A stretch of 39,743 nt of DNA from Gemmatimonadales bacterium (GCA_035577525.1 DATLVL010000323.1:1-39743), one strand, 5' to 3'; positions 10,741 to 32,454 are shown, counted from the stretch's first letter. Made by a program: numbers and translations. Notes: a model not told the origin generated them from the letters alone.

Positions 10741-11595
10741 CTACGCCGCGCCTTTCGCCCAGACACCAAAGGTTGGCCGCATCATCTGGTGCCCATAAAT
10801 TTCCTCGACCGCGAGCTTCCAGGTGAACACGTCGATGTCGTAGAAGACGTGCGACTTCGGCGTCCGCTGCATGACCAGCGCGATGGCCTCGCGATGACCG
10901 ATGAAGTTATTCGCCTGACCGCCGGCGGGCTTGACCAGGTTGGTGGTGATGCCCAGGTTGAGTCCGTACATGTCGCCGAGCATGCCCGACTTGGCGGGCA
11001 TCGAGTTGTTGCCGATGTACAGCGCGTTCGACCAGCGATCCAGCGCCAGCTTGGCAACCTTCTCAGCAGGTGACATGAGAAAGAAGCGGTTGTCCTGCGG
11101 GCAGTCCGCGTTATCCAGCAGCTGCACCGCGGCCAGCACGTTGGCGTCAGACAACGCCGTGCCCAGGGTGCCGACGGTCTGGGTGAAACCCGCGACGTCG
11201 GTGGCCAGGTTCGTATCGACGTCCTTGGCCAGCGCGTAGCCCAGCTTCTGCTGGTACTCATTCTGCACATCGACGATGCTCTGCACCTTGATGATGTCTT
11301 CGATGCCAAGCGCCGCGTATGACCAGATGTTCAGCGTGATGGTCGTGGCCGTTTCCGCGACGGTCTCGTAGACGATCGCGGTGTTCTCGGTCTTCGCCCG
11401 AGCCGCCAGGTTGCCAATGCTGGCGACCTTGACCGTCTTGCCCACGCTGGCGTCGTTTTCGAAGCCGCGGTTGACACTCTTGGCGAAGAGCAGGTTGCTT
11501 TCGGTCGCGCGCAGGACCTGCTTGCTCCAGATGTCCGGCGAGAACACTCCGTCAGAGATCGTCTTGTCGACGAACTCGGTTGCACCTGTAGCCAC
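10741..11595 (-). CDS. Major capsid protein
   Basis: 284 aa with a GTG start 6 nt after GGGGGT, preceded by a scaffold-like gene. Composition and size fit small coat proteins. The family was not verified. Confidence 0.75.
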   Translation of the reverse strand: MATGATEFVDKTISDGVFSPDIWSKQVLRATESNLLFAKSVNRGFENDASVGKTVKVASIGNLAARAKTENTAIVYETVAETATTITLNIWSYAALGIEDIIKVQSIVDVQNEYQQKLGYALAKDVDTNLATDVAGFTQTVGTLGTALSDANVLAAVQLLDNADCPQDNRFFLMSPAEKVAKLALDRWSNALYIGNNSMPAKSGMLGDMYGLNLGITTNLVKPAGGQANNFIGHREAIALVMQRTPKSHVFYDIDVFTWKLAVEEIYGHQMMRPTFGVWAKGAA

Positions 11596-11605
11596 TGGCT
11601 ACCCC

Positions 11606-12490
11606 CTACTGTCTGTGAACGGGGATGCCTCGAGTCGATCGATGCCGCACCCCTGGTTTCGGTCTGCCGTTCTCGTCGAACAGCGCGTCGTATTCGGCAA
11701 GGCTCATATTGGCGATCTGCTCATCCGTCACTTCGCGGACGCGACCGGGGGTGCCAGAGTCACGCTCGGGTACGGGTTCGTCGCCGTTCATCTCGCTCAA
11801 CATCGACTTTCGCAGTGCGGACTCGCGCTTTCCGATGCCGAGCTCGACTGCCTTGTCGACGATGTAGCGCATGTATTCTGCCATGCCCTCGGCCGGCGTC
11901 TTGCCGACCCCGAACGCCTTACCCGAGACGTCCTTCTGGATCGTTTCGGGCAGGTCTTTTTGAAACAGCACGATGGCGTCCATGGCTGGCGCCAGGGCCT
12001 GGGCCGATTGCTGCGACGCGAGCTGGGTCTGCAGCTCGCGCTGAGTCATCTCACCCAGGGTGTACAGGTCGTTGTTGGCCGCGGCCTCCAGCTTCGCCGC
12101 ATCCTGACGGTCGCGCTCCTGCTTCGCCAGCAGGTCGCGCGCACGACGGTCGCCGATCTGACCGATCAGACCGGACACGACCTCGTCCTTCTCCAGCTGG
12201 TCGCGCGGCAGGTTCTTCGCCAGCAGGCGCAGCGCTTCGGTCGGGTCTTTTGCTTCACGAACCGCCGCGAACCAGTCGGGCGGCTCGGACTCGGTCGGTT
12301 CGGACTCGGCGACGTCGGGCGCCTCGGGAGGGAGGTCGGACGTCGCCTCGTCCACGGGCGGGGGTGGAGTGCTGGACGCTCCGCCCGTCTCGCCCGAACG
12401 TCTCCGCGAAGGACGCGCGGGCGCAGCCGGCTGCTCGTCTGGCGCGTCGGCCAGGTCGGGGTGGACGGACTTGTCCCAATCGCCGGGCAT
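11606..12490 (-). CDS. Scaffolding protein candidate
   Basis: 294 aa, acidic, helical and low-complexity, directly upstream of the capsid gene. Confidence 0.5.
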   Translation of the reverse strand: MPGDWDKSVHPDLADAPDEQPAAPARPSRRRSGETGGASSTPPPPVDEATSDLPPEAPDVAESEPTESEPPDWFAAVREAKDPTEALRLLAKNLPRDQLEKDEVVSGLIGQIGDRRARDLLAKQERDRQDAAKLEAAANNDLYTLGEMTQRELQTQLASQQSAQALAPAMDAIVLFQKDLPETIQKDVSGKAFGVGKTPAEGMAEYMRYIVDKAVELGIGKRESALRKSMLSEMNGDEPVPERDSGTPGRVREVTDEQIANMSLAEYDALFDENGRPKPGVRHRSTRGIPVHRQ

Positions 12491-12631: not shown

Positions 12632-13855
12632 TCAACCCCTCCGAATCACGCCCACCGTGTTGGGCGCGTTGAACTGCGGCAACGTGTTCTGGATCTGCTT
12701 CAGCGAGTCTTGCGGATCGAGACCGTACTTTTCCTGCATCGACTGCAGGATCAAGTTTTGCGTGGTAGGCGTCGACCTGAGAAAACTCGCCGAGTCGATC
12801 TTGTTCGGCGTCGGCGTCGCGTCCAGCCACGACTGCGCGGTCGTCTGGTTCGCCTGCGGCGACTTGATGTCGTCGATCAACTGCTGCAGGTAGCCCATCC
12901 CGCCCTGGGTATTGCCGCCGGCAGTGCCCACGCCGGCCACTGTATTCGGGGCGCTGAAGCCGGCGGTCGGCAGGCCCTGCAGCACGCGCCCCGCCTGGCC
13001 GATGACCTGCGCCTGGCGGAAGGGATTGGCCTGGAGCGCGGCCGCGGCGTTGATTGCGCCCATCTGCTGCGCGTAGGCCTGCTGCTGCGCCGCCAGCGTG
13101 GTCTGGCCAGGTACGGGCGCCTGGCCCGCATTGCCGTACAGCCCGGCGTACTGCGCTTGCGCGGCCAGCGTCTCCTGTCCGGGGCCTGTGCCCTGCACCA
13201 GGCCATTCGGCGTGACGTAGTAGCCCGTCAGGCCCGCGTTCTGAGCCGCGATGTTCTGCGCCTGCAGCAGACCCGCCTGCGTGGGCGTGCCCTGATACAT
13301 GCCCGTCAGACCGGCCTGACTGATCTGTAGGTTCTCGTTGAAGCGGCGAACGTCGTCCTGGAACTTCTGGGTGTCCAGCCCGAAGTTGGCGTTGAACTCG
13401 CGGATCGCCTCGGCAATCGCATCTTTGTTGCCGCTGGCCTGCGCGCCCAGAAGCTGCTGAATGCCGGCGATCAGCTTCTGGGTATCCGCATTGGTGCCAG
13501 TCGTCGCTGCGACGGGCGCGGTGGCCGTTCCGGGCGCGCCGCTCATGATCGGCTGGACAGCCTGACCGGTGGTGTTGCCGTACGTCACCAGGATGCTGGT
13601 GCTGTCGGTCGGTCCGCTGTACCCGACGTTCTGGAGCTCCTGCTGCATCTGCTGGAGCGTCCGCGGCCCGTTGACGGTGTTGTACGAACCCGGCGCGACC
13701 GCTCCGCTGGGGGCACCACCGGTCGCGCCGGCCGGCGCGCCACCACCGCCACCCCCACCCCCGCTGGAGACGGGCACGTTATTGCCCTGCTGCTGGTCGG
13801 CCGGTCCGCTCGAGGGAAGCTCCTCGTGCCACTTGTTTCCGACGTAACGTCCCAT
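12632..13855 (-). CDS. Q/G/A-rich low-complexity virion protein (407 aa), possible internal/ejection protein
   Basis: ORF coupled by TGATG to the upstream gene. Contains a run of 8 Gly and repeated LTG/QAQ segments. Confidence 0.65.
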   Translation of the reverse strand: MGRYVGNKWHEELPSSGPADQQQGNNVPVSSGGGGGGGGAPAGATGGAPSGAVAPGSYNTVNGPRTLQQMQQELQNVGYSGPTDSTSILVTYGNTTGQAVQPIMSGAPGTATAPVAATTGTNADTQKLIAGIQQLLGAQASGNKDAIAEAIREFNANFGLDTQKFQDDVRRFNENLQISQAGLTGMYQGTPTQAGLLQAQNIAAQNAGLTGYYVTPNGLVQGTGPGQETLAAQAQYAGLYGNAGQAPVPGQTTLAAQQQAYAQQMGAINAAAALQANPFRQAQVIGQAGRVLQGLPTAGFSAPNTVAGVGTAGGNTQGGMGYLQQLIDDIKSPQANQTTAQSWLDATPTPNKIDSASFLRSTPTTQNLILQSMQEKYGLDPQDSLKQIQNTLPQFNAPNTVGVIRRG

Positions 13856-15786
13856 CAGGTACTACTCGCCAGCGCCACGGGCGCGTTCGGCGCGATGAAA
13901 GAAGCACCTGGCGCTGCGTTCCACGGATAGATCCCTCCTGTATACGCCGTCGCGGCACCGTAATTAGCACCCGGCACCGCGGCGAGCGGCGCAACCATTC
14001 CCGCGGCCTGAGCCGGCGGGATCGCCGGCACGGCAGGCACCACTGGCCGAGCCACCGCCGTTTGCGGAGCGACGGTGGCGGCCTGCTGCTGGCTCGCACT
14101 GGCGGCCTGCGTCGCGGCGACAATGGGATGCTGGGTGTTGGTGAGCTGCTGGTACTTGTCCAGCATTTGCCTGAGCGTGCCGATCGCCGCCTGTGTCGTC
14201 GGGTCGGCGTTATCACTCTTGGGGTCGGCCATCTGGACCATGCGCGCGGCCGAGTCGAGCGTTGCCTGACCGCCCATCAGGTCAGCCGTCCAGCCCGACA
14301 GGCCCTGCACCAGGTTGGCTCCGACGTCGCTCGGATACGACGTGATGTTCTTGTTTTGCAGCGTCTGGCCGAGGATGCTCTGCAGCGTTCCCGTCGCGGC
14401 TTGCGCTCGCTGCTGCAGCAGGTTGCCGGCCGTCTGCGCGTTCGCGCGCGTGTTGGCCAGGACATCGCCCGCCGCGGTCGTCACGTTCTGCTGCGTGTTG
14501 ATGTCGTTGGTCATCCGCGCGTTGGCGGCGTTGATCAACTGGATCGCTTCATCCTGCGAGATGTCGCCCGCGACTACCGTGCCGGTCAGCGACGTGGCCA
14601 GCTGCTTGAGCGCATCCGACGCGGTGATGCGGCCCTCGTTCGGAACCCACTTGAGCTTGCTCGGGTTGTCCGGATCCGGGATCGCGATCAGCCTGGCGTT
14701 GGCGTTCGGCGCCGGTACCTGCACCGCCGGCGGCTGGTAGTTGGTGTTGGGGTGCGACGCGATCAGGTTGCCCTGGTCGTCGTACCACTCGAGGTTCTTG
14801 AGGGTCGTACTGTTGTTGGCCGTCGCCGCTTTGGACACCCCGGGCGGCAGCTTGTACGTGCCGCTGTCGGCGTCGTACAGGTAGGTGATCCCGTTCGACG
14901 TGAGCGTCTTGGGCGGTCCATTCGGCCCGACCGCCACGAGCGCTTTGCTGGCGTCCGTCTCGTTTGGATCGAAGCGGTACATCGACCCGTCTGGATACGT
15001 GACGATCTGGAACGGCGAATCCTTGGTGACGTCGGTCAGCTTGACCAGTTGCTTCTTGGGGTCCGGCTCGTCCTTGTTGAACGAATAAATCGCCGTCGGG
15101 GTGGTGACGATCTGGCGCCCGTCGGCGGTCGTCGAGACCGCGTGGAGCTCGTTGTTGACCGGGTCCCATTGCCCGACCACCCCGCTACTGGCATCACCAG
15201 GTGAGCGATAGACAGGGTTCCACTTCGACGGGTCGGACGCTTTGTTGCCCGCCGCGGACTGGACGCTGGCGCCAATCTTGTTGTTGACCGGGTCCCACAG
15301 ACCGATGATCCGCTTGCCGCTCGGATCGTTCGGATCGGCGATCGGCGTCCACTGCGACGGGTCGGTTGTCAGGTCGCCTTCGACCTTGAATGGCTGCGTA
15401 CCCGGTGGCGCCTTCGGATCGCGCAGATAGACCGCCGGCGTGTTGGAGCCCGCGGGTATCGGGTTACCCTTCGCGTCCAGACGCTCGAGCCCCGCGGCCG
15501 GCGTGCTCGTCGTCGCCGGTTTCCCCTGCGGGCCCTGGATGACGTCGAAGCCGACGCCGCCCTTGGTGTTGGGGTTGTTGCCGACCTCTTTGACGATCAG
15601 CGAGTCGGGCTCGCCGCCGGGCCCCTGGATCGACAGGATGATGCCGGCCTGCTGATCGATCTGCGACGGCTCGCCGGCCAGGCCTGCTTTGGGATTGGCG
15701 ACCTTGACGACGTACGGCGCCTCGCCGACAACCTTGTAGCCGGGCCGCAGCGCGTCGACGGCCTGCTGTTTGGAGTTGTACGGCAT
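13855..15786 (-). CDS. P/N/Q-rich virion protein (643 aa), possible internal/ejection protein
   Basis: ORF coupled by TGATG to the giant gene. Contains a repeated WDPVNN motif. Confidence 0.65.
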   Translation of the reverse strand: MPYNSKQQAVDALRPGYKVVGEAPYVVKVANPKAGLAGEPSQIDQQAGIILSIQGPGGEPDSLIVKEVGNNPNTKGGVGFDVIQGPQGKPATTSTPAAGLERLDAKGNPIPAGSNTPAVYLRDPKAPPGTQPFKVEGDLTTDPSQWTPIADPNDPSGKRIIGLWDPVNNKIGASVQSAAGNKASDPSKWNPVYRSPGDASSGVVGQWDPVNNELHAVSTTADGRQIVTTPTAIYSFNKDEPDPKKQLVKLTDVTKDSPFQIVTYPDGSMYRFDPNETDASKALVAVGPNGPPKTLTSNGITYLYDADSGTYKLPPGVSKAATANNSTTLKNLEWYDDQGNLIASHPNTNYQPPAVQVPAPNANARLIAIPDPDNPSKLKWVPNEGRITASDALKQLATSLTGTVVAGDISQDEAIQLINAANARMTNDINTQQNVTTAAGDVLANTRANAQTAGNLLQQRAQAATGTLQSILGQTLQNKNITSYPSDVGANLVQGLSGWTADLMGGQATLDSAARMVQMADPKSDNADPTTQAAIGTLRQMLDKYQQLTNTQHPIVAATQAASASQQQAATVAPQTAVARPVVPAVPAIPPAQAAGMVAPLAAVPGANYGAATAYTGGIYPWNAAPGASFIAPNAPVALASST

Positions 15787-18700
15787 CAGGCTGCGGGCTC
15801 CCCTGCGACGGTGTACGGCGTCGGGACGGTCTTGCGCACCGCGCGTTGCTTGATGTCGGCGTCGCCCAGCGAGCGAACGAACAGCACGTCGCTATTCTGC
15901 GATGCGTTGCTGATCGCCTTCGAGAGCAGCTGGTTTTTCACACTGATGTCACCGTTCTTATACAGCGTCGAATCCATCACCGCCGCGACCTGCTGGCGGA
16001 TCTGCTCGCCTCGAGCGCGCTGGACCTGGTCCTGCTCTTCGGGGGTCAGGTCAATGGCCCAGCCATTGCCGACATTGACCGACTTGGCCGGCGGCGGAAT
16101 CCGGACGTCGTTGGCGCGCAGCGCCTGCAGCGTCGGCTCGTCGCGCAGGATGTCCGCCCGCAGCGGCAGCGCAAACGCCGCGGCGCCCGAGATGCCCTGC
16201 GTCCGCGGCTCGCCGATCGCCGTGAGCGACTCGGGCACATTCCCGCTCACACCTGGATAGTTGGCCTCCATCGCCTCGACCAGTCCCATCAGACCGTCGT
16301 GCGGGTTACGGCTCGCCACGCCGTACGCGCGCTGAATCTGACGCCCCATCGCCGAGTACGGACCGTAGCTGCTGACCAGGCTCTCGAGGAACTTGTTTGC
16401 ATACCGGGACGGGTCGTGCAGCACGTTGACCGTGTCCGACAGGCCCTGCAGGAAGGTGTTGTCGAGGACGTACTGCCCGATGCTGGTCGCCGCCCGAGCC
16501 ACCTCGTCCTTGTCCAGCAGACTGTGCCCGCGCTTGGCAGCGTCGGTCAGGATCGCCGCCATCGCCAGCGGCGCGCCCGCGGCGCCGAAGTTCTGCATCG
16601 GGATGTAGTACGTGTTGCCGCTGACCGGATCTTCAGCCACCATCGACCACTCGCGCCAACCCTGCGGGTAGGTGCTGGCCTCATTCGGGTCGTACGCGCC
16701 CGTCAGCATGCTCTTGCCACCGGTGAACGTGCCGGCGCCCAGCCCGATACCGAGACCCACGATCGCCGTGCCGATGGCCGTCCTGGCGATCCGCTGCTCG
16801 GCCAGCAGCGTGGCCCGGTCGAGCTGCGCCGTGGTCGCCTTGCCGGTCGCCTCGAGCGCGCCGCGCGCGCGGACCGCTTCGATCGAGCCGGCCACGCCGA
16901 ACGGCGACAGGCCCATGCCCTGGGCGGTGATGTTGGCCGGCGTCTTGATGAACGGCAGGGGTTGGGAGACGACCCCGCGCGCGGCGCCCCGCGGCGCCGG
17001 AATCCAGTCACGGTGCTCCTGGAAGACCATCCGCAGCATGGCGTCGTGGGCTTCCTTGTACAGGTCGGGGTAGTCCTCGAGATTCTTGATGATGTTCGCC
17101 CTGCGCCCGGCGAGCTGCTCGCCGCGGAATCCCTCGCGGTAGGCGTACCTGGTCGCGACCCGCGCGGCCTGCATCGCGAACGCGCCACCCCTGAACAACT
17201 GGTCCTCGGCTTGCAGCGCCCGCAGCGGACCTTCCAACGCGGCGTCGACCTTGCCCGAGCCGGAAGCGAAGCCTGGGCGGATGTTCTCGAGTTTGACCGC
17301 ATCCGCGGGCGTGATCCCCGTCTGCAGGATCTTCACCGCGTCCGGCATCGACGCCAGGAAGCCCGGTCCGTACGCCTCGAGCATCGGTCCGAGCTCGGCC
17401 ATGTAGGCAACCCGCCGCCCGCCGGTCGCCCTGGCGCGGGCCCAGTCGATCGGCACGACCGCGGCGTGCGTGGCCACCTCGAGCGGCACCTGGGTCACGT
17501 TGCCGACCATGTTGGCCATGTGGGTGATCGTCGACGACAGCAGTCCAGCGATACGCAGCGTCTGCGCCCTGGCCCACCAGCCGGGTGTCATCAGCCCCTT
17601 GACGAACTTGCCGGCGGCCAGCGGGTCGTTCGAGTTGACCGCCTCGACATAGGCAGCCAGGAGCTCGCGCGACGGTCTGGCGCCGCCGACCGCCTCGAGC
17701 AGGGTGGTCGCCTTCTGGGTCTGGAGGCTCTGCCGCTTCGACTCGAGATTCCACGCCCGCTTCGCGTCAGCTTCCGCGGACTTCGCGGCCAGGTCCGCGG
17801 CCTTGCGGTACTGCTCGATGTACAACCCGCCGCGGAAGGCGTTACGTTTCGCCACGGCATTCTCGTTGGCCTTCGAGTCCCAGAACGCCATCGTCTCCCA
17901 GGTGTCTTTGCGCTTGGCGAAGTTGTCGCGTTCGGCTTTCAGCTCGGCCTGCAGCGCCGAAAGGAGCTCTTGCGGCGGCTCGCGGACAGCCGCTTTCCGC
18001 CTCGCGGCGGCAGCATCGCGCTGGGCTTTCAGCGCGTTGTAGTCGTCCGCTTTCTCGTGCAGCGACATGGCCTGGTAGCGATCGAGCTGGTCGTACGCCT
18101 CGGCGATCTGGTCGATGATGCTGTTGGAAACCTTGACCCTGGGCGGCGGCGTGCCGGGCATGCCGACCTGCTCACCCGGTCCGACAGGACCACGACGCTC
18201 CGGTGGAATGTTCTCGTAGCCACGTTCGCGTGCAGCAATCTGCTCCTCTTCAGTCGATGGCACTGGGGTGACATCACCGCGCCGCAAGCGCTTGACGACC
18301 GCCTGCTTCTCGGCATCGAGCTCCTTGGCCTGCTCGAGCTGCTGCGTGGCCCGCTTGACGGCGGCCCGCGCCTGCGACGCCAACCTGGTCGCGGCGATGC
18401 GATCGTTGCTGGCGGTAATGCCGCGCGCCAGCGTCGCGTCCAGCCGATTTTTCAGCGCATTCAGCGTGCGACCCGCGGTCGTCCGTCCACCCCTGGCAAC
18501 CGCCAGCAGCCGGGTGTTATTGACCAGCTCGTTGAGCCCGTACGCGACTTGCTCGGGCGACAGCGCATCGACACCGCCACGCGCGGCGATGTCCTTGGCC
18601 ATCTGCTCCGAGCGCGCTTGCGCGTCGATCGCCGCGGCCTGCAACGCGACCATCTCTTCGGTGCTGAAGCCCTTGCCGACCGGTGTTTTGAGCCACTGCT

Positions 18701-21700
18701 CGCGCGTCATGCCGACCTTCGTCGCCAGGTCGGTGACCAGCGAGTCGTGGCTGATCCGCCCCTGACGATAGGCGTCGAAGAGCTCGGGGTTGTCTTCCGC
18801 GGCGCGCTGGATCTGGGCGCGGACCTCGGGCATGTCGCCCTTGAGCATCGCGTCGAGGTTCGGCATACGCGCGACGGTTTCGCTGCTCGGCTCGCCGACG
18901 CGGGCGGCCTCCACGTCGCTGATGCCGCGACCGGTGACGCCGCCCCTGGTGCCGACGACCTCACCTGGTGCCTCGCGCAGACCGTCACCGGTGAGCGGGT
19001 CGGCGTACGACTTCCTGCCGTTCTGGGTGACGATGTCTTCCGCCAGCGAGCCGGGCCCTGACGACGCCTGCTCGGTCGCGTACGGTCCGTGCGGCGCCTC
19101 TTCCTCCCCACCCGCGAACGGCAGGTCAGCCGGCGTCTGCGTCCGAGTCGTGAACCGCTGGCCTGGCGCCGCGTTGCCGAGTTGATCTGCGGCGGCCTGG
19201 ATGTCGCGCTGCTCGGCGGCAAGCGTGTTGCGCTCCGCCCTGAGCTCCGTCGGCGTCGGCTCGCGGCCCGCGTTCGGCGTGCGGAATCCACCCTCCGCCA
19301 GTCGCTTGACCTCGTCGGAGCCCGTGTTCAGCCCGACCTTCTCCCACCACAGCGGCTCGTACGGACTCGCGCCGTGACTGCTGGCGACCTGCGCCAGCTC
19401 GTCGTTGGTCCAGCCAGCCGCCCACGGCGGCCGCTCCGGTTTGGCATTCGGATTGCGTAACTGCTCGTCGATCGACGCGAGTCGGTCCTGATTCTGCTGG
19501 TAGCGCTGGTCCAACTGGTCGTAGTGCGCCGCGAGCTGCTCGTCGGTCATCGGCGTCTCGCCAGCAGCGGCTTCCCGCAGCAGGTGCGGGTTGCTGTGCA
19601 CCTCGCTCAGGCTCTGGGGTGGCGCGCCGGCTGGCTCCCGACCGACGGGACCAGGCCGCTCCGGTGGCAACTGCTCGCCCGGCACGATCGGCACCTCGCC
19701 GCGTTCGCTGCGCGCCAACTCGGCAACGTCGGCCATGCGCGGTGCGCGGAAGCCCCCCTCGAGCGCGCGCGGGACGAGTCGGCCAGCGGCCAGGCCGGCA
19801 CCGGCGCCCAGCGCGATGTTGCGCAGGCGCTCTTCGGGCGTGGCGTTCTCGGGTGTCGCGACGTTGCCGGCCACGCCGCCCGCGACGGCGCCGCCTACGT
19901 TGAGGTGGAGGCCGAGGGTGGATTCTGCGCGTTGTCGGGCGCCACGAAGCCCTCCCCCGGTGGCAGCGGCGGCTCCTGCTTCCGCGGCCGGAGCGGCGTC
20001 GCGGAAGACGGCTTGCGCGAGTTGCTGCCGACGAACGCCGTCCCCTGCTTGTAGACCCAGTGGTCCGGCGGCGCCGGCTTGACTCCCAGCGCGTCCAGCT
20101 CCGCGCGCTCCTGGTCCTCCGGACTCAACGGCATGTGTCGCTCCTCTGTAGTCTGTAAGTGTACCCGATATCCCTTCTGCGTTCAGGATTTGTTGCACTT
20201 GACGAACGAGCGCGACCGCCTTGCCCTCCATCAATGGCACGCGCACGCCCATGCCGGCCGTCTCCCTGAGGACCGGTAGCCCTTGCGCGCGCAGCGCATC
20301 CGAGAGGCGCGCCTGGTCCGCGCGAGATCCTAGGTCAACCGCGATGCCGCCCGCGCTTTTCGCGGTCGGGTCGGCGTGGTTGAAGCGGTCAGCACCGAGC
20401 CGCTGGCCGATCAGGTGCGCGGCGTCGTCGCCCACGCCGGCCACCGTGACGTAGGCGTGCCCGGCCGTCTGCTGAACGTCATGCTCGAGCGCGAGCCACG
20501 GGATCTTGCCCGTCGACGGGTCGACCTGGAGCTCTCCTGGTACGCGAATGACCGGCTGATCGGCGAGTGCCAGGTCGCGCAGCGCAGTCGCCGGCTCGGC
20601 CCCGACTGGACGGCGGATGCCCGTCTTCGGCCCGCTGACCGTGCCGTACTCGAAACCGCTCGGGTCCAGGATGGTGCGCTTCTGCAGCGCGGACTGGATC
20701 GACGGGTGGTAGAGCGCGATGTCGCCCAGCGCCGTCGCGCTCGCCGGTGGCGGAGCGTTGTAGCTGCCGTTCTGACGGATGCGGTCGCGTACGTCGTTGA
20801 TCTTGTTCGACCACGAAGTAGGCGGACCCATCCGTGGACCTCTGACTTCGTCAAGACCACCCGTCGCCAGCGTCTGCGGGTTGAGCAAGCCCGCTTGCTG
20901 CCCCTGCTTGATCGCGTCCGAGAGCCCGATGCGATCGTTGCGGAGCTCGGGCCCGATAATCGGATCGGTCCACAGCGTGCGGAACGTCGTCCACCCCGCG
21001 GCCTGCGCCTGGTCAGGCGGCAGGTTCATCTCGCGCGCCACCCAATTTGTCAGCGCGTGCATGGTGCGGTACGCCTGGTCATTCTGCGACACGTCCGGCA
21101 GCGGCTTACCGCCCTGCACGTCTGGCCTGGCGCCGAACAGCCGGCCCTGATGGACGTCCTGCGTTGAGTACGGCGCGTACGACTCGCTCAGCGCGTGCAG
21201 GAAATCCTGGGTGTAGCTGCTGAGTTTGGCCCCTGACGGGACCGGCACCTCGCCCGTGCGATAGCCGCGCATGACCTTCGCCAGCATGTCGTCGTCGATG
21301 TACGCCGAGTCAGCGCGGACCAGCGCTTGTACGTCCTTGAACGCCGTCGTCGCCTTGACCTGCGGCAAGTCCAGGTTCTCCAAGCCGACCAGGTCGGGCT
21401 TGGCCTGACGCATGGCGTCGAAGACCGACAGCATGGCGTGGTAGTTGGGCTGCACCCCTGCGTTGCCGCCGGTCGCTCCCATCAGCACCGCCGCCTCGCG
21501 CGGGTTGATGTCCTGACCGGTGTCCTGGCGGACCTGCTGCACGATCTGCTGATACCAGCGCGCCGCGGGCAGACCAGCTTCGGTCGCGTCGCGGACCTCC
21601 TGCAGACCACGCGAGCGCGAGCCGGCCATGCCCGGCAGTGACGCGACGTCGGCGCCGCTGATCGTTGGCCGCGGCGTGCCCTGCTGGCGTGCCTGGTCCT

Positions 21701-24302
21701 GCAGGAACGTCTCGGTCGTGTGCTCGGGCGTGCCTGGCTCATAGCCCGGTCGCGGCACGGCTTGACCGTGCAGCACATCCTGCTGCGCCGGCAAACGCAC
21801 GCCCCCCGCCTCCGAGCCGAGGAACTCCGCTACCCGCGGACGAAGCTCTGCGGCGCGATCGATCAGGGTCTGCCCGATGCGCCGCACGACGGGCGCTGCC
21901 GCGGCACTGCCCACGTCCGCCGCCGCGCCGAAGCCGGCCCCTTGCCAGAGCGCGGTAAACACCGATTCAGGCGTCGCGTCCGGCTTCTCGGCCTCCAACA
22001 GCGCGTTCTGAACGCCGCCGATGATGGCCCCGGACGCCAGCTTGTCGGCGACCGTCGACGCGAACTCCACCGCCCGCGGAGCCAGACGACCCGTCAGCAC
22101 GCCGCCAACTCGCTCGGCAGTCGCCGCCCCCGCGGCTCGCCCGAGCCCCATCGACGGGCCAAACGTGGCGATCATCAGTGGGTCCGTGAGCTGCTGGGCG
22201 ATGCTCGTCGTCAGACCGCCCAGAACCAGCACGTCGCGGGCCGGGTTGTTCTGCTCGAGCCACTGGTTCTTGACGTTCTGCGCGTCCTGGTACTGCTGCA
22301 GGCTGATGCCCATCGGCGGGTTGGCGCCGATGATCTGGTTCCAGGCGTTGGATGCGACGTCGCCGACCGTAATCGGCTCGTTGCCGCGCCGGTTCATCGC
22401 CTCCGCCGCGGCCTGGACGTCGCGCTGGTACTGCTCGTCGGCGGCCTGACGCTCCTGCGGCGTTCGGTTCAGCCCGTAGGCGTTGGACACCGCGCCGCCC
22501 AGGTCGGTTACGACGCCGCGCGCACCCGCCCCGATATCGCTGGCCACGCCACCCAGCACCGGCGTTGCCGCCTGGACTGCTGCCGCGCCGGGCTGCAGGC
22601 GGTTGATGTCCTGCGCGGTCTGACCGACTTGCTGCGCCGCTCCACCGAGCGCTGGCGTAATGGCCCGCACCGCTTCCGTACCGGGCTGGATGCGGTTGAT
22701 GTCCTGCGCTGCGCCCAGGACACCCTGCGCCGCGCTGCCCAAGTCCGACGCCACCTGGCCCACTCGAGTGGTAACGGCCTCTGCCGCGCCGCCCAGCACG
22801 TCCTGCGCGGTCTGGATCGGCGTCGGCCCCTGGTCGGCGACGACGTTGCCACTGGCGTCCTGCATGCCGCCCATGACCAGCGGCGCCCTGGCCTGGGGTC
22901 GACCGCCGAGGTTGATCGGCTCGTCGCTGGCGGTCACCGAGCCCTTGGCAGGGACATTGGGGTTGTTGGAGAACAGCGCGCCCTGCGCGGTGCCCATCAG
23001 GTTTTCCATCTGGGCCGGCGTCATCCACTCCGCGCCGCCCTTCAGATCCAGCCCCGAACGTCCAACGTGAAACGCGCCGGACTCCGCGTTGTAGCCGTCG
23101 GCGTAGAAGTAGTGGCCCGGCGTACTGATGGTGACCGGGTTGCCGGTCGCCGCTTCCTTGGCATACGCCGACCAGTCGCGGCCGACGATCTTGGTGTCGA
23201 TGCCGAGGTTGGTCATCAGCTTCTGCTCGCTGGCGATGCCGGCCATGCCGCCCTGCGACGTCCAGCCAACGTCCTTGGCCAGGTCGGTCGCCTCGCGCAG
23301 CGTCGGATTGCGCCCGAACCGCTCCGCGAACCTGACCGCGGCCGCGGGCCCGCAGGCTGCGTAGGCCTCCGCGCTGGTCAGCTGGCTGTCGCCGAACTGC
23401 GAGACATCTTGATAGCCCAGGTCACTGGCGGGTCGCGTGCTGCGCTGCTGCGCGCTCGAGAGGATCGTCTTGACGTAGTTCTGCGTTTCGGCAAACGGTG
23501 GTACGCCGCCGTACTGGTCAACGGCTCCGCCGCCCGCGTTGTAGGCCGCAAGCACCTTCGAGTAGTCGCCGTTGTACTTCTTCAGGTTCTGTGCATCGAG
23601 CCGCGCCGCGGCATCCAGACTGGCGTACGGATCGGTCGGATCGACACCCACGCCCTGCGCGGTGGTGGGCATGAACTGGGCGACACCGAGCGCACCCGCG
23701 GGTGACTTGGCCGTAGGGTCGAAGCCGGATTCTTGCTGGATCTGGGCAACGAAAATCTGCGGATCGATGCCCGCGCGCTGAGCCGCGGCCCTGGCGTAGT
23801 CCTGTAGCGACATCGACCGGTCTGGTGGTGCCGCGGCCGCGCTGGTATCGACAGGTGCGCCACCGCTGATCGACGGCTGCCCGCCGCCAAGCGTCTGGAT
23901 CGTCGGCTGCACCGCCGTCGCCAGTGACTGCAGTCCGCTCTGTGCGCCACCGGTCAGGGTGTTGACGTGGTCCAGCAGCGCGCTCTGCACCTGGTCGCGC
24001 TGCGCGCCGAGCTCAGTCAGCGCGCCGCCGACAGCCTGCTGCCCCTGGCCCAGGACCTGCAGCGCGTTCTGCTGCGCGCCCTGTGTCAGGCCGTTGACGT
24101 GTTGCAGCAGCGTGCTCTGCACCTGGTCGGGCGACGGCACCTGGATCTGTGGCGGCGCCTGCGCCAGTCCAGCAGCGGCCTGCACCGGCTGCACGACCTG
24201 CTGGCCGACCTGCTGCGCCTGACCGAGCAGGCTCTGGACGTGCTGGTGAAGCTGGTCCTGGATCGAGTCGCGCAGGTCGTCGAGGAGGATCGTGCCCGGC
24301 AT
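15786..24302 (-). CDS. Giant multidomain virion protein (2838 aa) with an SLT lytic transglycosylase domain and a papain-like cysteine peptidase domain
   Basis: Uninterrupted 8.5-kb ORF. The SLT motif QQESGFDPTAKSPAGALGVAQFMPTTA...AAYNAG is followed by AACGPAA...TPGHYFYADGY. The rest is long helical repeat regions, with a hydrophobic GLGIGLGAG segment near the C-terminus. Confidence 0.85.
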   Translation of the reverse strand: MPGTILLDDLRDSIQDQLHQHVQSLLGQAQQVGQQVVQPVQAAAGLAQAPPQIQVPSPDQVQSTLLQHVNGLTQGAQQNALQVLGQGQQAVGGALTELGAQRDQVQSALLDHVNTLTGGAQSGLQSLATAVQPTIQTLGGGQPSISGGAPVDTSAAAAPPDRSMSLQDYARAAAQRAGIDPQIFVAQIQQESGFDPTAKSPAGALGVAQFMPTTAQGVGVDPTDPYASLDAAARLDAQNLKKYNGDYSKVLAAYNAGGGAVDQYGGVPPFAETQNYVKTILSSAQQRSTRPASDLGYQDVSQFGDSQLTSAEAYAACGPAAAVRFAERFGRNPTLREATDLAKDVGWTSQGGMAGIASEQKLMTNLGIDTKIVGRDWSAYAKEAATGNPVTISTPGHYFYADGYNAESGAFHVGRSGLDLKGGAEWMTPAQMENLMGTAQGALFSNNPNVPAKGSVTASDEPINLGGRPQARAPLVMGGMQDASGNVVADQGPTPIQTAQDVLGGAAEAVTTRVGQVASDLGSAAQGVLGAAQDINRIQPGTEAVRAITPALGGAAQQVGQTAQDINRLQPGAAAVQAATPVLGGVASDIGAGARGVVTDLGGAVSNAYGLNRTPQERQAADEQYQRDVQAAAEAMNRRGNEPITVGDVASNAWNQIIGANPPMGISLQQYQDAQNVKNQWLEQNNPARDVLVLGGLTTSIAQQLTDPLMIATFGPSMGLGRAAGAATAERVGGVLTGRLAPRAVEFASTVADKLASGAIIGGVQNALLEAEKPDATPESVFTALWQGAGFGAAADVGSAAAAPVVRRIGQTLIDRAAELRPRVAEFLGSEAGGVRLPAQQDVLHGQAVPRPGYEPGTPEHTTETFLQDQARQQGTPRPTISGADVASLPGMAGSRSRGLQEVRDATEAGLPAARWYQQIVQQVRQDTGQDINPREAAVLMGATGGNAGVQPNYHAMLSVFDAMRQAKPDLVGLENLDLPQVKATTAFKDVQALVRADSAYIDDDMLAKVMRGYRTGEVPVPSGAKLSSYTQDFLHALSESYAPYSTQDVHQGRLFGARPDVQGGKPLPDVSQNDQAYRTMHALTNWVAREMNLPPDQAQAAGWTTFRTLWTDPIIGPELRNDRIGLSDAIKQGQQAGLLNPQTLATGGLDEVRGPRMGPPTSWSNKINDVRDRIRQNGSYNAPPPASATALGDIALYHPSIQSALQKRTILDPSGFEYGTVSGPKTGIRRPVGAEPATALRDLALADQPVIRVPGELQVDPSTGKIPWLALEHDVQQTAGHAYVTVAGVGDDAAHLIGQRLGADRFNHADPTAKSAGGIAVDLGSRADQARLSDALRAQGLPVLRETAGMGVRVPLMEGKAVALVRQVQQILNAEGISGTLTDYRGATHAVESGGPGARGAGRAGSQAGAAGPLGLQAGDGVRRQQLAQAVFRDAAPAAEAGAAAATGGGLRGARQRAESTLGLHLNVGGAVAGGVAGNVATPENATPEERLRNIALGAGAGLAAGRLVPRALEGGFRAPRMADVAELARSERGEVPIVPGEQLPPERPGPVGREPAGAPPQSLSEVHSNPHLLREAAAGETPMTDEQLAAHYDQLDQRYQQNQDRLASIDEQLRNPNAKPERPPWAAGWTNDELAQVASSHGASPYEPLWWEKVGLNTGSDEVKRLAEGGFRTPNAGREPTPTELRAERNTLAAEQRDIQAAADQLGNAAPGQRFTTRTQTPADLPFAGGEEEAPHGPYATEQASSGPGSLAEDIVTQNGRKSYADPLTGDGLREAPGEVVGTRGGVTGRGISDVEAARVGEPSSETVARMPNLDAMLKGDMPEVRAQIQRAAEDNPELFDAYRQGRISHDSLVTDLATKVGMTREQWLKTPVGKGFSTEEMVALQAAAIDAQARSEQMAKDIAARGGVDALSPEQVAYGLNELVNNTRLLAVARGGRTTAGRTLNALKNRLDATLARGITASNDRIAATRLASQARAAVKRATQQLEQAKELDAEKQAVVKRLRRGDVTPVPSTEEEQIAARERGYENIPPERRGPVGPGEQVGMPGTPPPRVKVSNSIIDQIAEAYDQLDRYQAMSLHEKADDYNALKAQRDAAAARRKAAVREPPQELLSALQAELKAERDNFAKRKDTWETMAFWDSKANENAVAKRNAFRGGLYIEQYRKAADLAAKSAEADAKRAWNLESKRQSLQTQKATTLLEAVGGARPSRELLAAYVEAVNSNDPLAAGKFVKGLMTPGWWARAQTLRIAGLLSSTITHMANMVGNVTQVPLEVATHAAVVPIDWARARATGGRRVAYMAELGPMLEAYGPGFLASMPDAVKILQTGITPADAVKLENIRPGFASGSGKVDAALEGPLRALQAEDQLFRGGAFAMQAARVATRYAYREGFRGEQLAGRRANIIKNLEDYPDLYKEAHDAMLRMVFQEHRDWIPAPRGAARGVVSQPLPFIKTPANITAQGMGLSPFGVAGSIEAVRARGALEATGKATTAQLDRATLLAEQRIARTAIGTAIVGLGIGLGAGTFTGGKSMLTGAYDPNEASTYPQGWREWSMVAEDPVSGNTYYIPMQNFGAAGAPLAMAAILTDAAKRGHSLLDKDEVARAATSIGQYVLDNTFLQGLSDTVNVLHDPSRYANKFLESLVSSYGPYSAMGRQIQRAYGVASRNPHDGLMGLVEAMEANYPGVSGNVPESLTAIGEPRTQGISGAAAFALPLRADILRDEPTLQALRANDVRIPPPAKSVNVGNGWAIDLTPEEQDQVQRARGEQIRQQVAAVMDSTLYKNGDISVKNQLLSKAISNASQNSDVLFVRSLGDADIKQRAVRKTVPTPYTVAGEPAA
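22983..23390 (-). other. Papain-like Cys peptidase domain of the giant protein, aa ~305-440 (Cys317, His397)
   Basis: The CGPAA and GHYFY motifs have the same Cys-to-His spacing as the endolysin at 1480-1920. Confidence 0.55.
23448..23810 (-). other. SLT (family 1 lytic transglycosylase) domain of the giant protein, aa ~165-285, catalytic Glu191
   Basis: E-S-x-F ... GLMQ-like GVAQF ... AYNAG motif order, with coordinates computed from the ORF start. Confidence 0.8.
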
Positions 24303-24304
24303 GG

Positions 24305-24802
24305 CTACGGACCCGAAGGCGGCAGCGGCAGACCGTTAGGTCCGAGGATGACGGGGACTGGTGGCGGAGCGACCGGTGCGACCGGTAACGCTGCTGGCGG
24401 TGGGAGCACTGGAGTTGGGGCTGGGGCAGGTGGTGGGGCTGGCGCCAGCGCTGCTGACGCGTTCGCCGCGAACGCCTGCATGCCGGCACCGGGTGGCGGG
24501 GGTGGTGCGACGCCTGGGGCGGTGCTCGGTGGCTGCACGCCGATGCGCTTGGCGACGTCCAGGAACTGTTGCGGGTCGCGCCGCGCTTCCGCCTGCAGCC
24601 ACTGCCGATCGTTCGCCATGTACTTCGAGCGGTACAGGTCGTCGAGTTGCGCGTTGCTGACCTGCGCCATGTCGGGATGGTTCTTGTTGTCGCCGAAGAC
24701 GCCCTGCGCGATCTCCGGCGCGTCGCGCTGAATCTCGTTGGTGATCTCCGACTGGAGACGCACGATCTCGTTCTGGCGCGTGCCCGGCGTGGTGTAGGCC
24801 AC
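24305..24802 (-). CDS. Hypothetical head-module protein with a Pro/Ala-rich C-terminus (165 aa)
   Basis: ORF between the portal region and the giant gene. Confidence 0.6.
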   Translation of the reverse strand: MAYTTPGTRQNEIVRLQSEITNEIQRDAPEIAQGVFGDNKNHPDMAQVSNAQLDDLYRSKYMANDRQWLQAEARRDPQQFLDVAKRIGVQPPSTAPGVAPPPPPGAGMQAFAANASAALAPAPPPAPAPTPVLPPPAALPVAPVAPPPVPVILGPNGLPLPPSGP

Positions 24803-24950: not shown

Positions 24951-26981
24951 CTAGCCACCTCCTGGTGCAGCCGCGCCCTGCGGCCCGAACGGCACGCCAC
25001 CGGGTGGCAGTGTGCCGCCTGGCTGCTGCGCGCCACCAATGACCTGCCCGTACGCCGGCGGACCCACCCCGGCTCCGTTTGGCGCGGCCGCCAGCGCGCC
25101 AAGATCCGGCACGCCGCCAGCACCGGGCCCACCACCTTCGAACACGCCTGGCTGAGGTTGCTGCCCCGGCGGACCACCGGGCGGCAGACCCGCCTGGAGC
25201 TGGCCGCTCAGTGCGAGCTGCTCCGCGTCCTGCGCCTTCTGCAGCATGTCGCCGCGGCCGGCTTCCATGAACACCTCGGCGTCCAGCCACTTCTGGTACG
25301 CCGGGCTGGCGCGGATGCGGTCGCGCGCGATGCTGCGCCGAATCTCGTCGGGGTTGTCGCCCAGGTAGGTGACCGCTTCGTCCTTGCCGAACGTACCCGC
25401 GGCGAGCCGCTCGTGCGCGTAGCGGGCCATGATCATCTCGTCGGTCGGAAGTTGCGCCTGAACTTCCCACTTGATGCGCATGGGTCGCTCGAGGTCCTTG
25501 GGCCCGAAGCCGATGAACTCGGCGACCTGCGTTCCCGAGCCGACATCGACGCCGCCCGAGAACACCCAGACTTTCTCACCCGCGCGTTCGCGGATCAGCG
25601 TCCACAACTTCTCGGTCTGACCCTTGAGCAGGCTCTCGATGCCGTGGCGGACGGGCCCGACGCGGGTCCTCGAGTAGCTGAGCACCTGACTGATAGCGAA
25701 ACCGGCGCCCTCCATACCGCTCAGGGTGGTCACCCTGGGCGACTCGAGGTCGCGGATCGCGCCATCGATCAACGCCATGTGTTTTTCCAGGGTCGCCGCG
25801 TCGGGGTACTGGATGCGCTGCAGCTGGCGACCGGGCGGCAGGTTCAGGATCTCGCCCGGATGCACCGTCGGGTCGGTTTCCTTCGGCTTGCCGTCGTCGC
25901 CGATGATCATCGCCGCGGGCGTGTCGCCGTAGGTCACCAGCGGCGACAGCAGGTCCCTTGCCACGTATTGCGCGTGCATGGCGCGCAGGTACGCGCGGTA
26001 CTGCACCAGCCACAGTTTGGTGCGGCCGATGCCCCAGCCGATTTTGCGGTTGCGCCACCAGTTCATGGTCAAGCCTGGCGCGTAGTCGTAGGGCACGCCG
26101 AACGGGTACTTGTGGCGGAATTGCTTGACGATGTACCCCGTCGGGTCGCCCTTCATGTTCTGGCCACAGATGGCGTACGAGACCCAGGTGTCGTCCCAGT
26201 GCTCCAGGAAGGTCACCGAGCTCAGCATGTTGCGCGACGCCTCGATCAGGTTCTGCGACTGGCCGAGCTCTTCGGGCACGATGTTGCCCTGTGAGTCATA
26301 GCCCAGGCGGTAGCGGCGGAACGCCGATCGCATCGGCATCTGGCTGACCTCGAGCACCTCGCACAGGTAGCCGTTGCTCCACTGCGGGTACACCTTGCGC
26401 GGATCGACATACGACCACACGAACGGCGGCCCCGCGCGCTTCTTGGCCTCTTCGGTGAGCTTGTCGTACGCGGTGTAGTCCGCGGTCGTCGACGACGCGC
26501 TCTTGGCCGGGTCGGGAATGCCGTAGCGCTCCGACCACAGGTCGCTGGCCCACAGGATTTTGGCCCAGCCGCCGCCGTCGTTCAGCGTCGCGTCGGTGAC
26601 CTGGGTCATGGTGTCGGAGCCCGGCTCGCGCGTGCCGCACTCCCACAGCGTCTCTTCGGTGAAGTGCTCGAGCTTGCTGGCCACGGTCTGCGCGGTGTCG
26701 CCTTCGCCGCCGACGATGGCTAACTTGGGGCGCTCGAGCGTCAGGATGGCGGTCTGCTGGAACGCCTCTTCCGTAATGTCCGGGTCGCGCGGGTCGACGT
26801 GGACGAGGACGTAGTCCTTGTCGGCCTCGCTGAGCGCGGGTCGGCGCATCTCGCGCTGCTCGCGGACCAGGTCGATGTCGTTGTCCTGCTGGAGGTATAG
26901 ATCGCCGAGCTCGGTCTGTAGCGACGTGAGGTATTCGCTGTCGGGAGCCTTCAGCTCCTTCTTCGAGCGGTCGATGGCCAC
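24951..26981 (-). CDS. Portal protein
   Basis: 676 aa, the first large ORF after the large terminase. It has a GTG start and a G/P-rich C-terminal tail. Confidence 0.7.
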   Translation of the reverse strand: MAIDRSKKELKAPDSEYLTSLQTELGDLYLQQDNDIDLVREQREMRRPALSEADKDYVLVHVDPRDPDITEEAFQQTAILTLERPKLAIVGGEGDTAQTVASKLEHFTEETLWECGTREPGSDTMTQVTDATLNDGGGWAKILWASDLWSERYGIPDPAKSASSTTADYTAYDKLTEEAKKRAGPPFVWSYVDPRKVYPQWSNGYLCEVLEVSQMPMRSAFRRYRLGYDSQGNIVPEELGQSQNLIEASRNMLSSVTFLEHWDDTWVSYAICGQNMKGDPTGYIVKQFRHKYPFGVPYDYAPGLTMNWWRNRKIGWGIGRTKLWLVQYRAYLRAMHAQYVARDLLSPLVTYGDTPAAMIIGDDGKPKETDPTVHPGEILNLPPGRQLQRIQYPDAATLEKHMALIDGAIRDLESPRVTTLSGMEGAGFAISQVLSYSRTRVGPVRHGIESLLKGQTEKLWTLIRERAGEKVWVFSGGVDVGSGTQVAEFIGFGPKDLERPMRIKWEVQAQLPTDEMIMARYAHERLAAGTFGKDEAVTYLGDNPDEIRRSIARDRIRASPAYQKWLDAEVFMEAGRGDMLQKAQDAEQLALSGQLQAGLPPGGPPGQQPQPGVFEGGGPGAGGVPDLGALAAAPNGAGVGPPAYGQVIGGAQQPGGTLPPGGVPFGPQGAAAPGGG

Positions 26982-31831: not shown

Positions 31832-32454
31832 GCCACCTCCATGCATGATTGGTGATGGATCACGTCGAGCCAGCGATTGAGACGCGACCAGTTCTGGTCG
31901 GGTCCGTATTTCAGGTAGGTGCCGTCGGCCGAATCGAAAAGCGAAACCATCATCGTGACCAACCTCCGCTCACTGTTGACGCGGCCCTGGTGCGTTGGCT
32001 TGCCGTGCGAACGCGCCCAGCGTGCAGATGCATAGCCCCCATCCTCGGCGAACTTCCACTCGTCGCGGCCGCCGATGAACAGCACGTCGAAGGTGTCCGG
32101 GTTCGGAAACGCATCGTGAAAGCCGTCCTGGGCGACGAACGCCGCGCGGTAGCCGAGTTGGCGAATCGTTTCGAGGTAGGGCATCGACAGTTGCAGCGTG
32201 GCCACGGCGTCGCCGACCACGTCTGGCGCCACGGCGAACAGGCAGTTCTGGCGATAACGGCGGAGGCCAGCCAGCCACTCGAGCCAGTCGCCAGCGTTCC
32301 ATTCGTCAGGCTTGGCGAAGCGTCCGTTGTCGCAGGCGAACTTCCAGAACGGGAACGCCCGCGAGTCATTGCCCATGCCCGGCTGATACATCAGGCCGAG
32401 TTCGGGCCGAGGGTTGGCCAGCAACGTCTGGGTCATCACGCCGCTCAGGTACAT
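31828..32454 (-). CDS. Minimal TGT/DpdA-like (queuine/DNA-guanine transglycosylase-like) barrel protein, tentative
   Basis: 208 aa from the ATG at 32454 (TGATG coupling). Five ordered motifs resemble TGT: CDNG, APDVVGD, VAQDG, FIGG, SLFDSADG. There is no zinc-site Cys cluster. Confidence 0.4.
   Translation of the reverse strand: MYLSGVMTQTLLANPRPELGLMYQPGMGNDSRAFPFWKFACDNGRFAKPDEWNAGDWLEWLAGLRRYRQNCLFAVAPDVVGDAVATLQLSMPYLETIRQLGYRAAFVAQDGFHDAFPNPDTFDVLFIGGRDEWKFAEDGGYASARWARSHGKPTHQGRVNSERRLVTMMVSLFDSADGTYLKYGPDQNWSRLNRWLDVIHHQSCMEVA

Follow-up and report, generated by a model that had tools for sequence, protein, structure and literature searches.

A giant two-enzyme protein from the head-gene block of a probable short-tailed temperate phage, and its likely role as an ejected virion protein

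We analysed a 39,743-nucleotide stretch of DNA from a Gemmatimonadales bacterium (GCA_035577525.1 DATLVL010000323.1:1-39743; hereafter the window), a phage-like contig dominated by a single gene whose 2838-residue product we call the giant. Our results support a model in which the giant is an internal virion protein of a short-tailed temperate phage, stored in the head and ejected at infection: an oversized analogue of the T7 gene 16 product (gp16) and a polyvalent protein of the phage type. We regard this reading as probable. It draws on a C-terminal module homologous to proteins encoded at the gene 16 position of other phages, on two adjacent enzyme domains near the N terminus, and on a conserved place within the head genes. 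The giant is thus a variant of a large recognised class, distinguished by its gene position, its two-enzyme head, its cargo module and the very large family to which it belongs.

A preliminary description of the window, made from the sequence alone, had noted one 8.5-kb open reading frame (ORF) making up 21 percent of the genome. This holds: the ORF occupies 21.4% of the 39,743 bases and has a coding-type codon bias, with G+C fractions of 0.72/0.51/0.85 at the three codon positions, the same pattern as in the other genes of the window. Because the G+C content of the window is 61–73% (about 68% overall), long spurious ORFs are expected. An antisense ORF of 1071 codons opposite the giant gene (15846-19061, plus strand) failed our coding-composition filter (G+C at third codon positions >0.78, at second positions <0.62), as did further ORFs of 150–660 codons, the usual artefact of DNA of about 68% G+C. 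An assembly chimera, which the preliminary description had raised as a danger, is contradicted by two homologues from other samples, P0003 (2859 residues, 64% identity) and P0005 (2880 residues, 53% identity), which are collinear with the giant end to end and align over 100% of its length. The N-terminal sequence MPGTILLDDLR is kept in homologues, which favours the upstream ATG over an automatic call of 2778 residues (P0001). The closest relative, P0002, is 82–93% identical and has 3027 residues, with about 190 extra residues near position 1470, and indel turnover thus occurs even among near-identical copies. Megablast of the giant gene against 50,697 phage records gave no match, and tblastn of the giant matched through one domain alone, the lytic transglycosylase domain (SLT) described below. 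When representative bacterial genomes were scanned twice for prophage copies, with peptide patterns that proved too specific, none came to light. Module borders were drawn from a coverage map over 69 homologues together with per-segment identities (Table 1).

The case for a place inside the virion comes chiefly from the C-terminal module of about 1050 residues. Its profile matched 18,022 cluster representatives at E<=1e-3, 6,327 of them at E<=1e-30. The module also matches 'internal virion protein D' of Desulfovibrio phage ProddE (E 1.7e-34; by hhalign 99.4%, E 2.4e-21, over residues 2064–2825), gp38 of Roseobacter phage CRP-227 (E 1.4e-22) and, in Podoviridae sp. ctQWt234, a protein of 1121 residues (E 8.5e-43) that is in turn assigned to phrog_6651, named 'internal virion protein'. 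The corresponding genes of ProddE and CRP-227 close the set of internal-protein genes, following the tail tubular A/B genes and the gp14- and gp15-like genes, and therefore occupy the position of T7 gene 16. T7 gp16 itself is unrelated to the module (hmmsearch score 1.0; hhalign E 0.17), and the likeness between the two proteins is one of function and position class, not of homology. The preliminary description had proposed a head-packaged, ejected protein similar to T7 gp16. Packaging and ejection remain the best-supported reading, strengthened by the homology to proteins of the gene 16 slot, whereas no homology to T7 gp16 itself was detectable beyond the SLT domain.

An AlphaFold2 (AF2) model of the C-terminal module, built from a 16-sequence alignment, is almost entirely helical and of low confidence (predicted local distance difference test score, pLDDT, 64.3; predicted template modelling score, pTM, 0.46). 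Neither a profile search of the PDB nor Foldseek against it (E<1e-3) matched the module to a solved structure. Foldseek against BFVD, a set of predicted viral structures, gave 31 matches at E<1e-3, the best at 9.5e-18. Those named 'Internal virion protein' come from Pelagibacter phage EXVC018P and Synechococcus phage S-CBP3; other names are large polyvalent protein associated domain, PolyVal ADP-ribosyltransferase (ART) and Phage MuF C-terminal domain, and the sole tape-measure match was not significant (E 0.12). The module also contains the only strongly hydrophobic, helix-length segment of the giant (residues 2505–2526), and the motif around it is conserved in our alignment of the module (alignment A2). 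In 29 more distant carriers of the module, Pfam recognised SLT in 4, glucosaminidase in 2, M23 in 1, ddrB-ParB in 2, ART-PolyVal in 1 and C39_2 in 1.

The same module ties the giant to polyvalent proteins. Among 120 listed homologues, 25 have the same head, an SLT domain followed by a C39-like domain, joined to a different C terminus that carries Pfam LPD38 in precomputed annotation. Aligned by hhalign against these LPD38-type C termini (524 columns), A2 gave 97% and E 1.1e-10, compared with about 0% and E 0.72 for the reversed LPD38-type alignment used as a control. The LPD38-type C termini in turn match the C terminus of the 2807-residue giant of the Escherichia Stx phage phi24B (hhalign 98.6%, E 5e-16; hmmsearch with the LPD38-type profile, E 3.4e-11). 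A direct comparison of A2 with the phi24B protein was not significant (about 0%, E 0.42). The LPD38-type sequences therefore bridge both comparisons, and the link from the giant to phi24B is transitive only. A likeness to polyvalent proteins, suggested in the preliminary description, is borne out by this chain of profiles and by the LPD and PolyVal names among the BFVD matches.

Polyvalent proteins were defined by Iyer et al. in 2017 (PMC5512222), who found lysozyme and LPD38 domains only in the phage type. In the giant, two or more unassigned modules share one chain with the glycosidase and the Cys peptidase, and this chain is encoded within the block that runs from the large terminase subunit gene (TerL) to the capsid gene; it thus has several domains of disparate predicted activity, encoded alongside packaging genes, by which such proteins are recognised. 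Pfam LPD38 (PF18857), LPD1, LPD5 and MuF-C were not detected in the giant, and Pfam found neither a zincin-like metallopeptidase nor a polymerase. Published work describes two LPD38 proteins. The phi24B protein, gp47 (LPD5/LPD1/LPD38/MuF-C), is reported from proteomics to be abundant in purified virions, is reported to be invisible in the reconstruction and has been proposed to be an ejection protein (10.64898/2026.04.10.717836, a 2026 preprint), and a 2198-residue LPD38 protein of PTXU04 (PTXU04_00025) is reported to be needed for efficient infection (10.1101/2023.09.18.558157). We also considered the MuF/SPP1 gp7 type of head protein and rejected it: Phage_Mu_F was not found at E<=1, and the resemblance is limited to position, one small gene after p676, the putative portal gene.

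The head of the giant carries two enzyme domains. A lytic transglycosylase with Glu191 had been recognised at the outset, and Pfam SLT (PF01464) covers residues 169–274 at E 3.1e-21, scoring 75.5 bits where the cutoff is 21.3; in an alignment of 70 homologues, at least 90% retain E191, which lies in QIQQESGF. The region matches phrog_342 (E 4.3e-26), which bears the name 'internal virion protein with endolysin domain', and T7 gp16 chains in the PDB (6yt5/7eyb, E 1.2e-4), the gp16 matches spanning only residues 172–261. The second domain, which the preliminary description had called a Cys317/His397 peptidase, is C39-like and of papain type. Its residues stand: C317 lies in AACGPAA and H397 in PGHYF, and C317, H397 and D402, a Cys/His/Asp triad in the expected order, are invariant in 22 diverse sequences. 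The family assignment is less firm in this copy, where Peptidase_C39_2 falls below threshold (E 0.002, 19.2 bits against 24). Among homologues, P0020 exceeds the cutoff at 24.4 bits, P0079 gives E 5.7e-4 and P0033 E 0.007; a PDB profile search with the domain returned no sequence relative.

The C39-like domain is the most conserved segment of the giant, at least 64% identical in every locus. In loci where the identity of p676 has dropped to 23% and tblastn no longer picks up capsid or terminase, the domain retains 66–74% identity, compared with about 75% for SLT and 27–43% for the C-terminal module in the same distant phages. The two cassettes together (22953-23810) are 66–76% identical in the distant loci L028, L036, L038, L045 and L055. 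Such conservation may reflect either a recent horizontal spread of the cassettes or an extraordinary constraint on them.

What the C39-like domain cuts is suggested by what takes its place. Three full-length homologues, P0012, P0069 and P0030, are without it, and each of them carries NlpC/P60 or M23; in P0012 the NlpC/P60 domain lies, by coordinates, in exactly the C39-like slot. Replacement by known wall endopeptidases suggests that the C39-like domain, too, would be a peptidoglycan peptidase, one that cuts the peptides of the cell wall. Exchange is not confined to this slot. In near-identical phages (p676 at least 90% identical) the SLT domain gives way to a glucosaminidase or to an SLT-type domain of another kind, and the same phages gain or lose the middle module. 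The giant gene is thus a hotspot of cassette exchange.

A different role for the C39-like domain leads to the most serious competitor of our model, in which the giant is an injected polyprotein that processes itself. The protease would cleave the giant's own chain, for example at its Gly-rich linkers, or a conserved host protein, and not the wall; in one variant, it would release wall-hydrolase, cargo and channel fragments, a role proposed for zincin metallopeptidases elsewhere. The C39-type family is known to cleave after Gly-Gly, and the giant has long Gly-rich linkers. Moreover, this copy has no zincin, and Iyer et al. (PMC5512222) see a peptidase for processing as a core element of polyvalent proteins. 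An identity of 66–74% where p676 retains only 23% would also be uncommon in a wall hydrolase and accords with a substrate that is fixed. Two observations point the other way: the homologues without the domain carry wall endopeptidases in its stead, and the domain always adjoins the glycosidase cassette. On balance we consider self-processing possible but unlikely. We hold it distinctly unlikely that the domain is a protease with a fixed target, whether the giant itself or a host or defence protein, that is traded horizontally as an effector cassette, with the middle module as a new injected effector fold.

Between the enzymes and the C-terminal module lie regions that are more variable. The preliminary description had picked out two internal repeat pairs and a glycine-rich hydrophobic segment, and all of these recurred in our analysis: DQVQS..L..HVN.LT.GAQ at residues 59 and 103 in the N-terminal region, QDINR.QPG..AV at residues 533 and 564 in the linker, and GLGIGLGAG at residue 2516. 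The middle module of about 580 residues is present in 16 of the 69 homologues (E <=1e-57) and is absent from some near-identical phages. In its AF2 model (pLDDT 65.6), an alpha/beta domain of ferredoxin/ACT-like appearance comes after a helical one. Foldseek against the PDB gave nothing at E<1e-3; its best matches, at E about 0.04, were to ferredoxin/ACT folds of a generic kind. The alignment likewise had no match in Pfam or in a PDB profile search. A link to DUF7178 spans about 90 residues only (E about 1e-5). The suggestion that effector or anti-defence domains might hide in the roughly 2400 unassigned residues was not supported for this copy, in which Pfam, PDB and Foldseek searches identified none; relatives carry GNAT and M48 in the variable region (P0069 has Peptidase_M48), and ddrB-ParB and ART-PolyVal also occur among them. 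At 19740-19880 (minus strand; about residues 1475–1520), a Gly-rich motif flanks ATPEERLRN (G..AGG.AGN.ATPE.ATPEERLRNIALGAGAGLAAG). It recurs in the distant homologues P0069, P0033 and P0020, and lies inside the C-terminal module in P0045, P0047 and P0035; it may be a membrane-active hairpin.

The genomic setting of the giant gene is conserved. The order TerL, p676, p165, giant, p643, p407, p294, capsid and p214 onward is found in at least 20 IMG/VR contigs, many of them 38–42 kb long, and all recognisable genes of the window lie on the minus strand. The small genes and fibre-like proteins come after the capsid gene, the fibre-like genes forming the end of the module away from the giant. The p165 stop lies 2 nt before the giant's ATG (TAG-cc-ATG), the giant's TGA overlaps the p643 ATG (TGATG), and by ORF coordinates the p643 stop and the p407 start share base 13855. 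Judged by these junctions, the block from p165 through p407 is translationally coupled. The closest solved relative of the window's major capsid protein is that of cyanopodophage A4 (9jwb, E 2e-16; A4 gp33, 27% identity, E 1e-20).

Of the head module in the preliminary description, the gene order and the capsid are confirmed, and the large terminase of the window is confirmed as well, whereas the 'portal' and 'scaffold' labels have no support from sequence or profile and are putative, given by position. For p676, PHROGs, Pfam, NCBIfam, PDB phmmer and PDB profile searches gave no portal signal; Pfam found no portal domain in 16 family members, and 145 database homologues are likewise without any Pfam domain. 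By hhalign, p676 was negative against the portals of T7, ProddE, phi24B and A4, and p294 showed no similarity to the scaffolds of T7, ProddE and A4. If p676 is a portal, it belongs to a family outside current models. It is the most conserved protein of the lineage, and a few of its homologues lie in genome bins labelled Chloroflexota and Jiangellaceae, the sole hint of a host. The products of p651 and p341, tested against the PDB as nozzle or adaptor, were negative. The neighbours p643 and p407 (12632-15786) are of low complexity, rich in Gln, Ala, Gly and Thr, and are kept in about 30 loci; together with p165, they showed no similarity to T7 gp13-15, ProddE IVP-B/IVP-C or CRP-227 gp35-37.

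Table 1. Modules of the giant and genes around it, in coordinates of the 39,743-base window
Feature	Coordinates	Strand	Basis or remark
Giant gene	15786..24302	-	2838 codons plus stop; ATG start; product 298.5 kDa, pI 5.7
Residues 1-150, Gln-rich region with degenerate repeats	23853..24302	-	31-51% identity in close relatives
Residues 165-290, SLT lytic transglycosylase, catalytic E191	23433..23810	-	PF01464
Residues 300-450, C39-like papain-type domain	22953..23405	-	C317, H397, D402
Residues 451-869, Gly/Ala/Gln-rich linker with moderately hydrophobic stretches	21696..22952	-	Composition, per-segment identities
Residues 870-1450, middle 'cargo' module (about 580 residues)	19953..21695	-	Coverage across homologues
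Residues 1451-1784, Gly-rich/ATPEERL motif (residue 1487), then Pro/acidic region	18951..19952	-	Kept only among closer relatives
Residues 1785-2838, mostly alpha-helical C-terminal module (about 1050 residues)	15789..18950	-	Alignment A2
Residues 2208-2829, core of C-terminal module	15816..17681	-	Homology to gene-16-position proteins
Residues 2505-2526, membrane-helix-like segment IARTAIGTAIVGLGIGLGAGTF	16725..16790	-	Kyte-Doolittle, 19-residue window, 1.53
Large terminase subunit (TerL)	27167..28450	-	Terminase_6C E 4.2e-9; phrog_2 E 2.9e-37
p676, putative portal	24951..26981	-	Position only (directly after TerL); 62-96% identity within lineage
p165, small, Pro/Ala-rich	24305..24802	-	Conserved partner in 31 loci
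p643, candidate co-packaged internal protein	13855..15786	-	Start overlaps the giant's stop
p407, Gln/Ala/Gly-rich, candidate co-packaged internal protein	12632..13855	-	Adjoins p643
p294, putative scaffold	11606..12490	-	Position only (immediately upstream of capsid gene)
Major capsid protein, HK97 fold	10741..11595	-	phrog_267 E 5.6e-30; 9jwb E 2e-16

Comparison with known systems places the giant between classes that differ in size and gene order. Among the closest is phi24B gp47 (vb_24B_48, 2807–2811 residues), a protein of nearly equal size from a short-tailed temperate phage. The two differ in their enzymes, a metallopeptidase in gp47 and SLT plus a Cys peptidase in the giant, and in gene position: the gp47 gene comes behind the tail genes at the distant end of its genome, that of the giant between the putative portal and the capsid. 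The LPD38-type relatives share both the N-terminal SLT and C39-like cassettes and the gene slot of the giant. The proteins of the ProddE, CRP-227 and PHROG 6651 type are homologous to the giant over about 500–760 C-terminal residues. At 1121–1303 residues, they are less than half the size of the giant and have unrelated N-terminal parts; they come from lytic, T7-like genomes with another gene order, and their 'internal virion' label is an annotation by synteny.

T7 gp16 (1318 residues; 7eyb, 6yt5, 7k5c) resembles the giant in having an N-terminal lytic transglycosylase with a catalytic Glu and in being large and mostly helical with predicted membrane segments. Its expected role is the crossing of the wall and the inner membrane (PMC8954989). 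Proteins of the gp16-like group range from 609 to 1337 residues, and the hydrolase domain moves between ejection proteins (PMC8954989). The giant is 2.15 times as long as T7 gp16, about twice the upper end of that range, and has an extra Cys peptidase and a cargo module; gp16 is the last product of the gp14-gp15-gp16 operon downstream of the tail tubular genes, a placement that the giant does not share. In cyanopodophage A4, whose capsid protein is the closest solved one to that of the window, the pre-ejectosome (gp26-gp29; 9K2V) is reported to include gp28, a head-enclosed protein in which a lytic transglycosylase is joined to an M23 peptidase (PMC12002296). The two-enzyme logic of gp28 is that of the giant, and the summed lengths are similar: 1114+1717+1058+380 = 4269 residues for the A4 internal proteins and 4053 residues for p165, the giant, p643 and p407. 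The A4 functions are, however, spread over four proteins, the largest of 1717 residues, encoded after the tail genes, and no homology to A4 gp26-29 was detectable in the modules of the giant or in its neighbours. The N4 virion RNA polymerase, of about 3500 residues, is another giant podovirus-head protein that is packaged and ejected, and in this it can be likened to the giant. It differs in that no polymerase or zincin was found in the giant, and the window genome is half the size. Polymerases of the N4 type are counted among polyvalent proteins, and fusions between them and lysozyme domains can occur.

Direct observation covers the ORF, the SLT domain with its catalytic Glu, the invariant Cys/His/Asp triad, the homologies of the C-terminal module, the gene order and the domain swapping. 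These comparisons are consistent with a mechanism of which we infer every step and observed none. The giant would be made from the coupled block p165, giant, p643 and p407 within the head-assembly operon, and a few copies would be built into the procapsid at the portal vertex, possibly with the three neighbouring products. At adsorption it would leave through the portal and tail channel before the DNA. SLT would then cut glycan strands and the adjacent Cys/His domain peptide stems or cross-links, so that the wall is opened locally. Together with the helical C-terminal module, which contains the single membrane-like helix, the long Gly/Ala linker could help to form or anchor a trans-envelope conduit for DNA at the cytoplasmic membrane, and the middle module would be exchangeable cargo delivered at the same time.

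Several points weigh against an internal, ejected protein. The virion location of the giant and its close relatives is itself deduced, as we found no cultured phage that carries one. Similarity to T7 gp16 ends with SLT, and there is none to the A4 ejection proteins. The ejection genes of T7, A4 and phi24B follow tail genes, whereas the giant gene follows that of the putative portal and precedes that of the capsid. Confidence is low in each of the two structure models (pLDDT 64–66), neither of which matches a solved structure, and the comparison with phi24B gp47 reaches significance only by way of the LPD38-type proteins (E 0.42 when made directly). The Chloroflexota and Jiangellaceae bins that hold p676 homologues may represent single-membrane bacteria. 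Finally, podovirus morphology is deduced only from the lack of recognisable tube, sheath and tape-measure genes in a poorly annotated genome. The preliminary description had reported no such genes, and we likewise detected no tail tube, sheath, tape-measure or chaperone families in the downstream genes; since most genes of the window are unannotatable, 'no tape measure' is weak negative evidence.

Could the giant instead act outside the head, as a tail-associated lysin or a structural hub, needle or fibre-like protein? Many phages bear wall hydrolases on their tail tips, and the SLT region also matches the PHROGs 'lytic tail protein' and 'lytic tail fiber protein'. These matches span SLT only (residues 129–303), however, and the C-terminal module matches internal virion proteins and gene-16-slot proteins but no tail proteins. 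The giant gene also lies upstream of the capsid gene, with the fibre-like genes at the other end of the module. We therefore judge an external protein quite improbable. A role outside the virion altogether, in lysis, as a wall remodeller expressed in lysogeny or as a polyvalent remnant of a conjugative element, appears highly improbable. Polyvalent proteins do occur on conjugative elements (PMC5512222), and homologues of the giant bear the automatic source name of FlgJ-like hydrolases, but the giant is embedded and translationally coupled in the head-gene block of more than 20 phage contigs, and type IV secretion genes are absent. A tape measure protein of a long-tailed phage is hardly credible: some tape measures do contain SLT or peptidase domains (SPbeta yomI is annotated as such in the tblastn matches) and the C-terminal module is largely helical, but the gene lies between TerL/p676 and the capsid gene, where a tape measure gene would have tail chaperone genes before it and distal tail genes after it, the searches turned up no family of tube, sheath or chaperone proteins, the one BFVD tape-measure match falls short of significance, and, as tape measures scale at about 0.15 nm per residue, 2838 residues would imply an implausible tail of about 425 nm for a 39-kb genome.

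Other features of the window bear on the phage as a whole. A RecT recombinase (30971-31846, minus strand) and a large serine recombinase, or serine integrase (36229-37986, minus strand), indicate a temperate lifestyle. An exact 120-bp direct repeat occurs at 446-565 and 39624-39743, the second copy ending at the contig end and the integrase lying 1.6 kb from it. The unit set by the repeat would be 39,178 bp long, in agreement with related contigs of 38.9–39.1 kb. Each copy is preceded by a different sequence, and bases 1-445 are thus no mere duplication of the bases that precede the second copy. The repeat could reflect host flank with an attachment-site duplication, or an assembly junction; a small Cys-rich ORF (450-728, plus strand) has its 5' end within it. 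The p422 gene (6889-8157, minus strand) encodes about 8 tandem copies of a unit of about 19 residues (PNAIATAESVFGP..L.QVL) and matches only a PHROG of unknown function; the product looks like a fibre or spike shaft. The product of p146 (1480-1920, minus strand) has a C-x-x-C...YHW pattern that recalls a small papain-like peptidase. It has no family match, its comparison with the C39-like domain of the giant was not significant (hhalign E 0.38), and on this pattern it is a possible endolysin.

One implication of our study is that proteins usually treated apart belong together. The C-terminal module joins internal virion proteins of the gene 16 position to the LPD38-type giants, within a family that is very large and experimentally untouched. 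Short-tailed phages must build their envelope channel from proteins stored in the head, and few phage parts are as poorly understood, or evolve as fast, as these ejection proteins. In the giant, the glycosidase, the peptidase and the cargo are each exchangeable among near-identical phages, which is what a locus in an arms race should look like. Two targets stand out: the Cys-peptidase domain of about 150 residues, which is unusually conserved, and the cargo module of about 580 residues, which has no known fold. If the virion location is true, the family would be a natural system for the delivery of protein cargo into bacteria.

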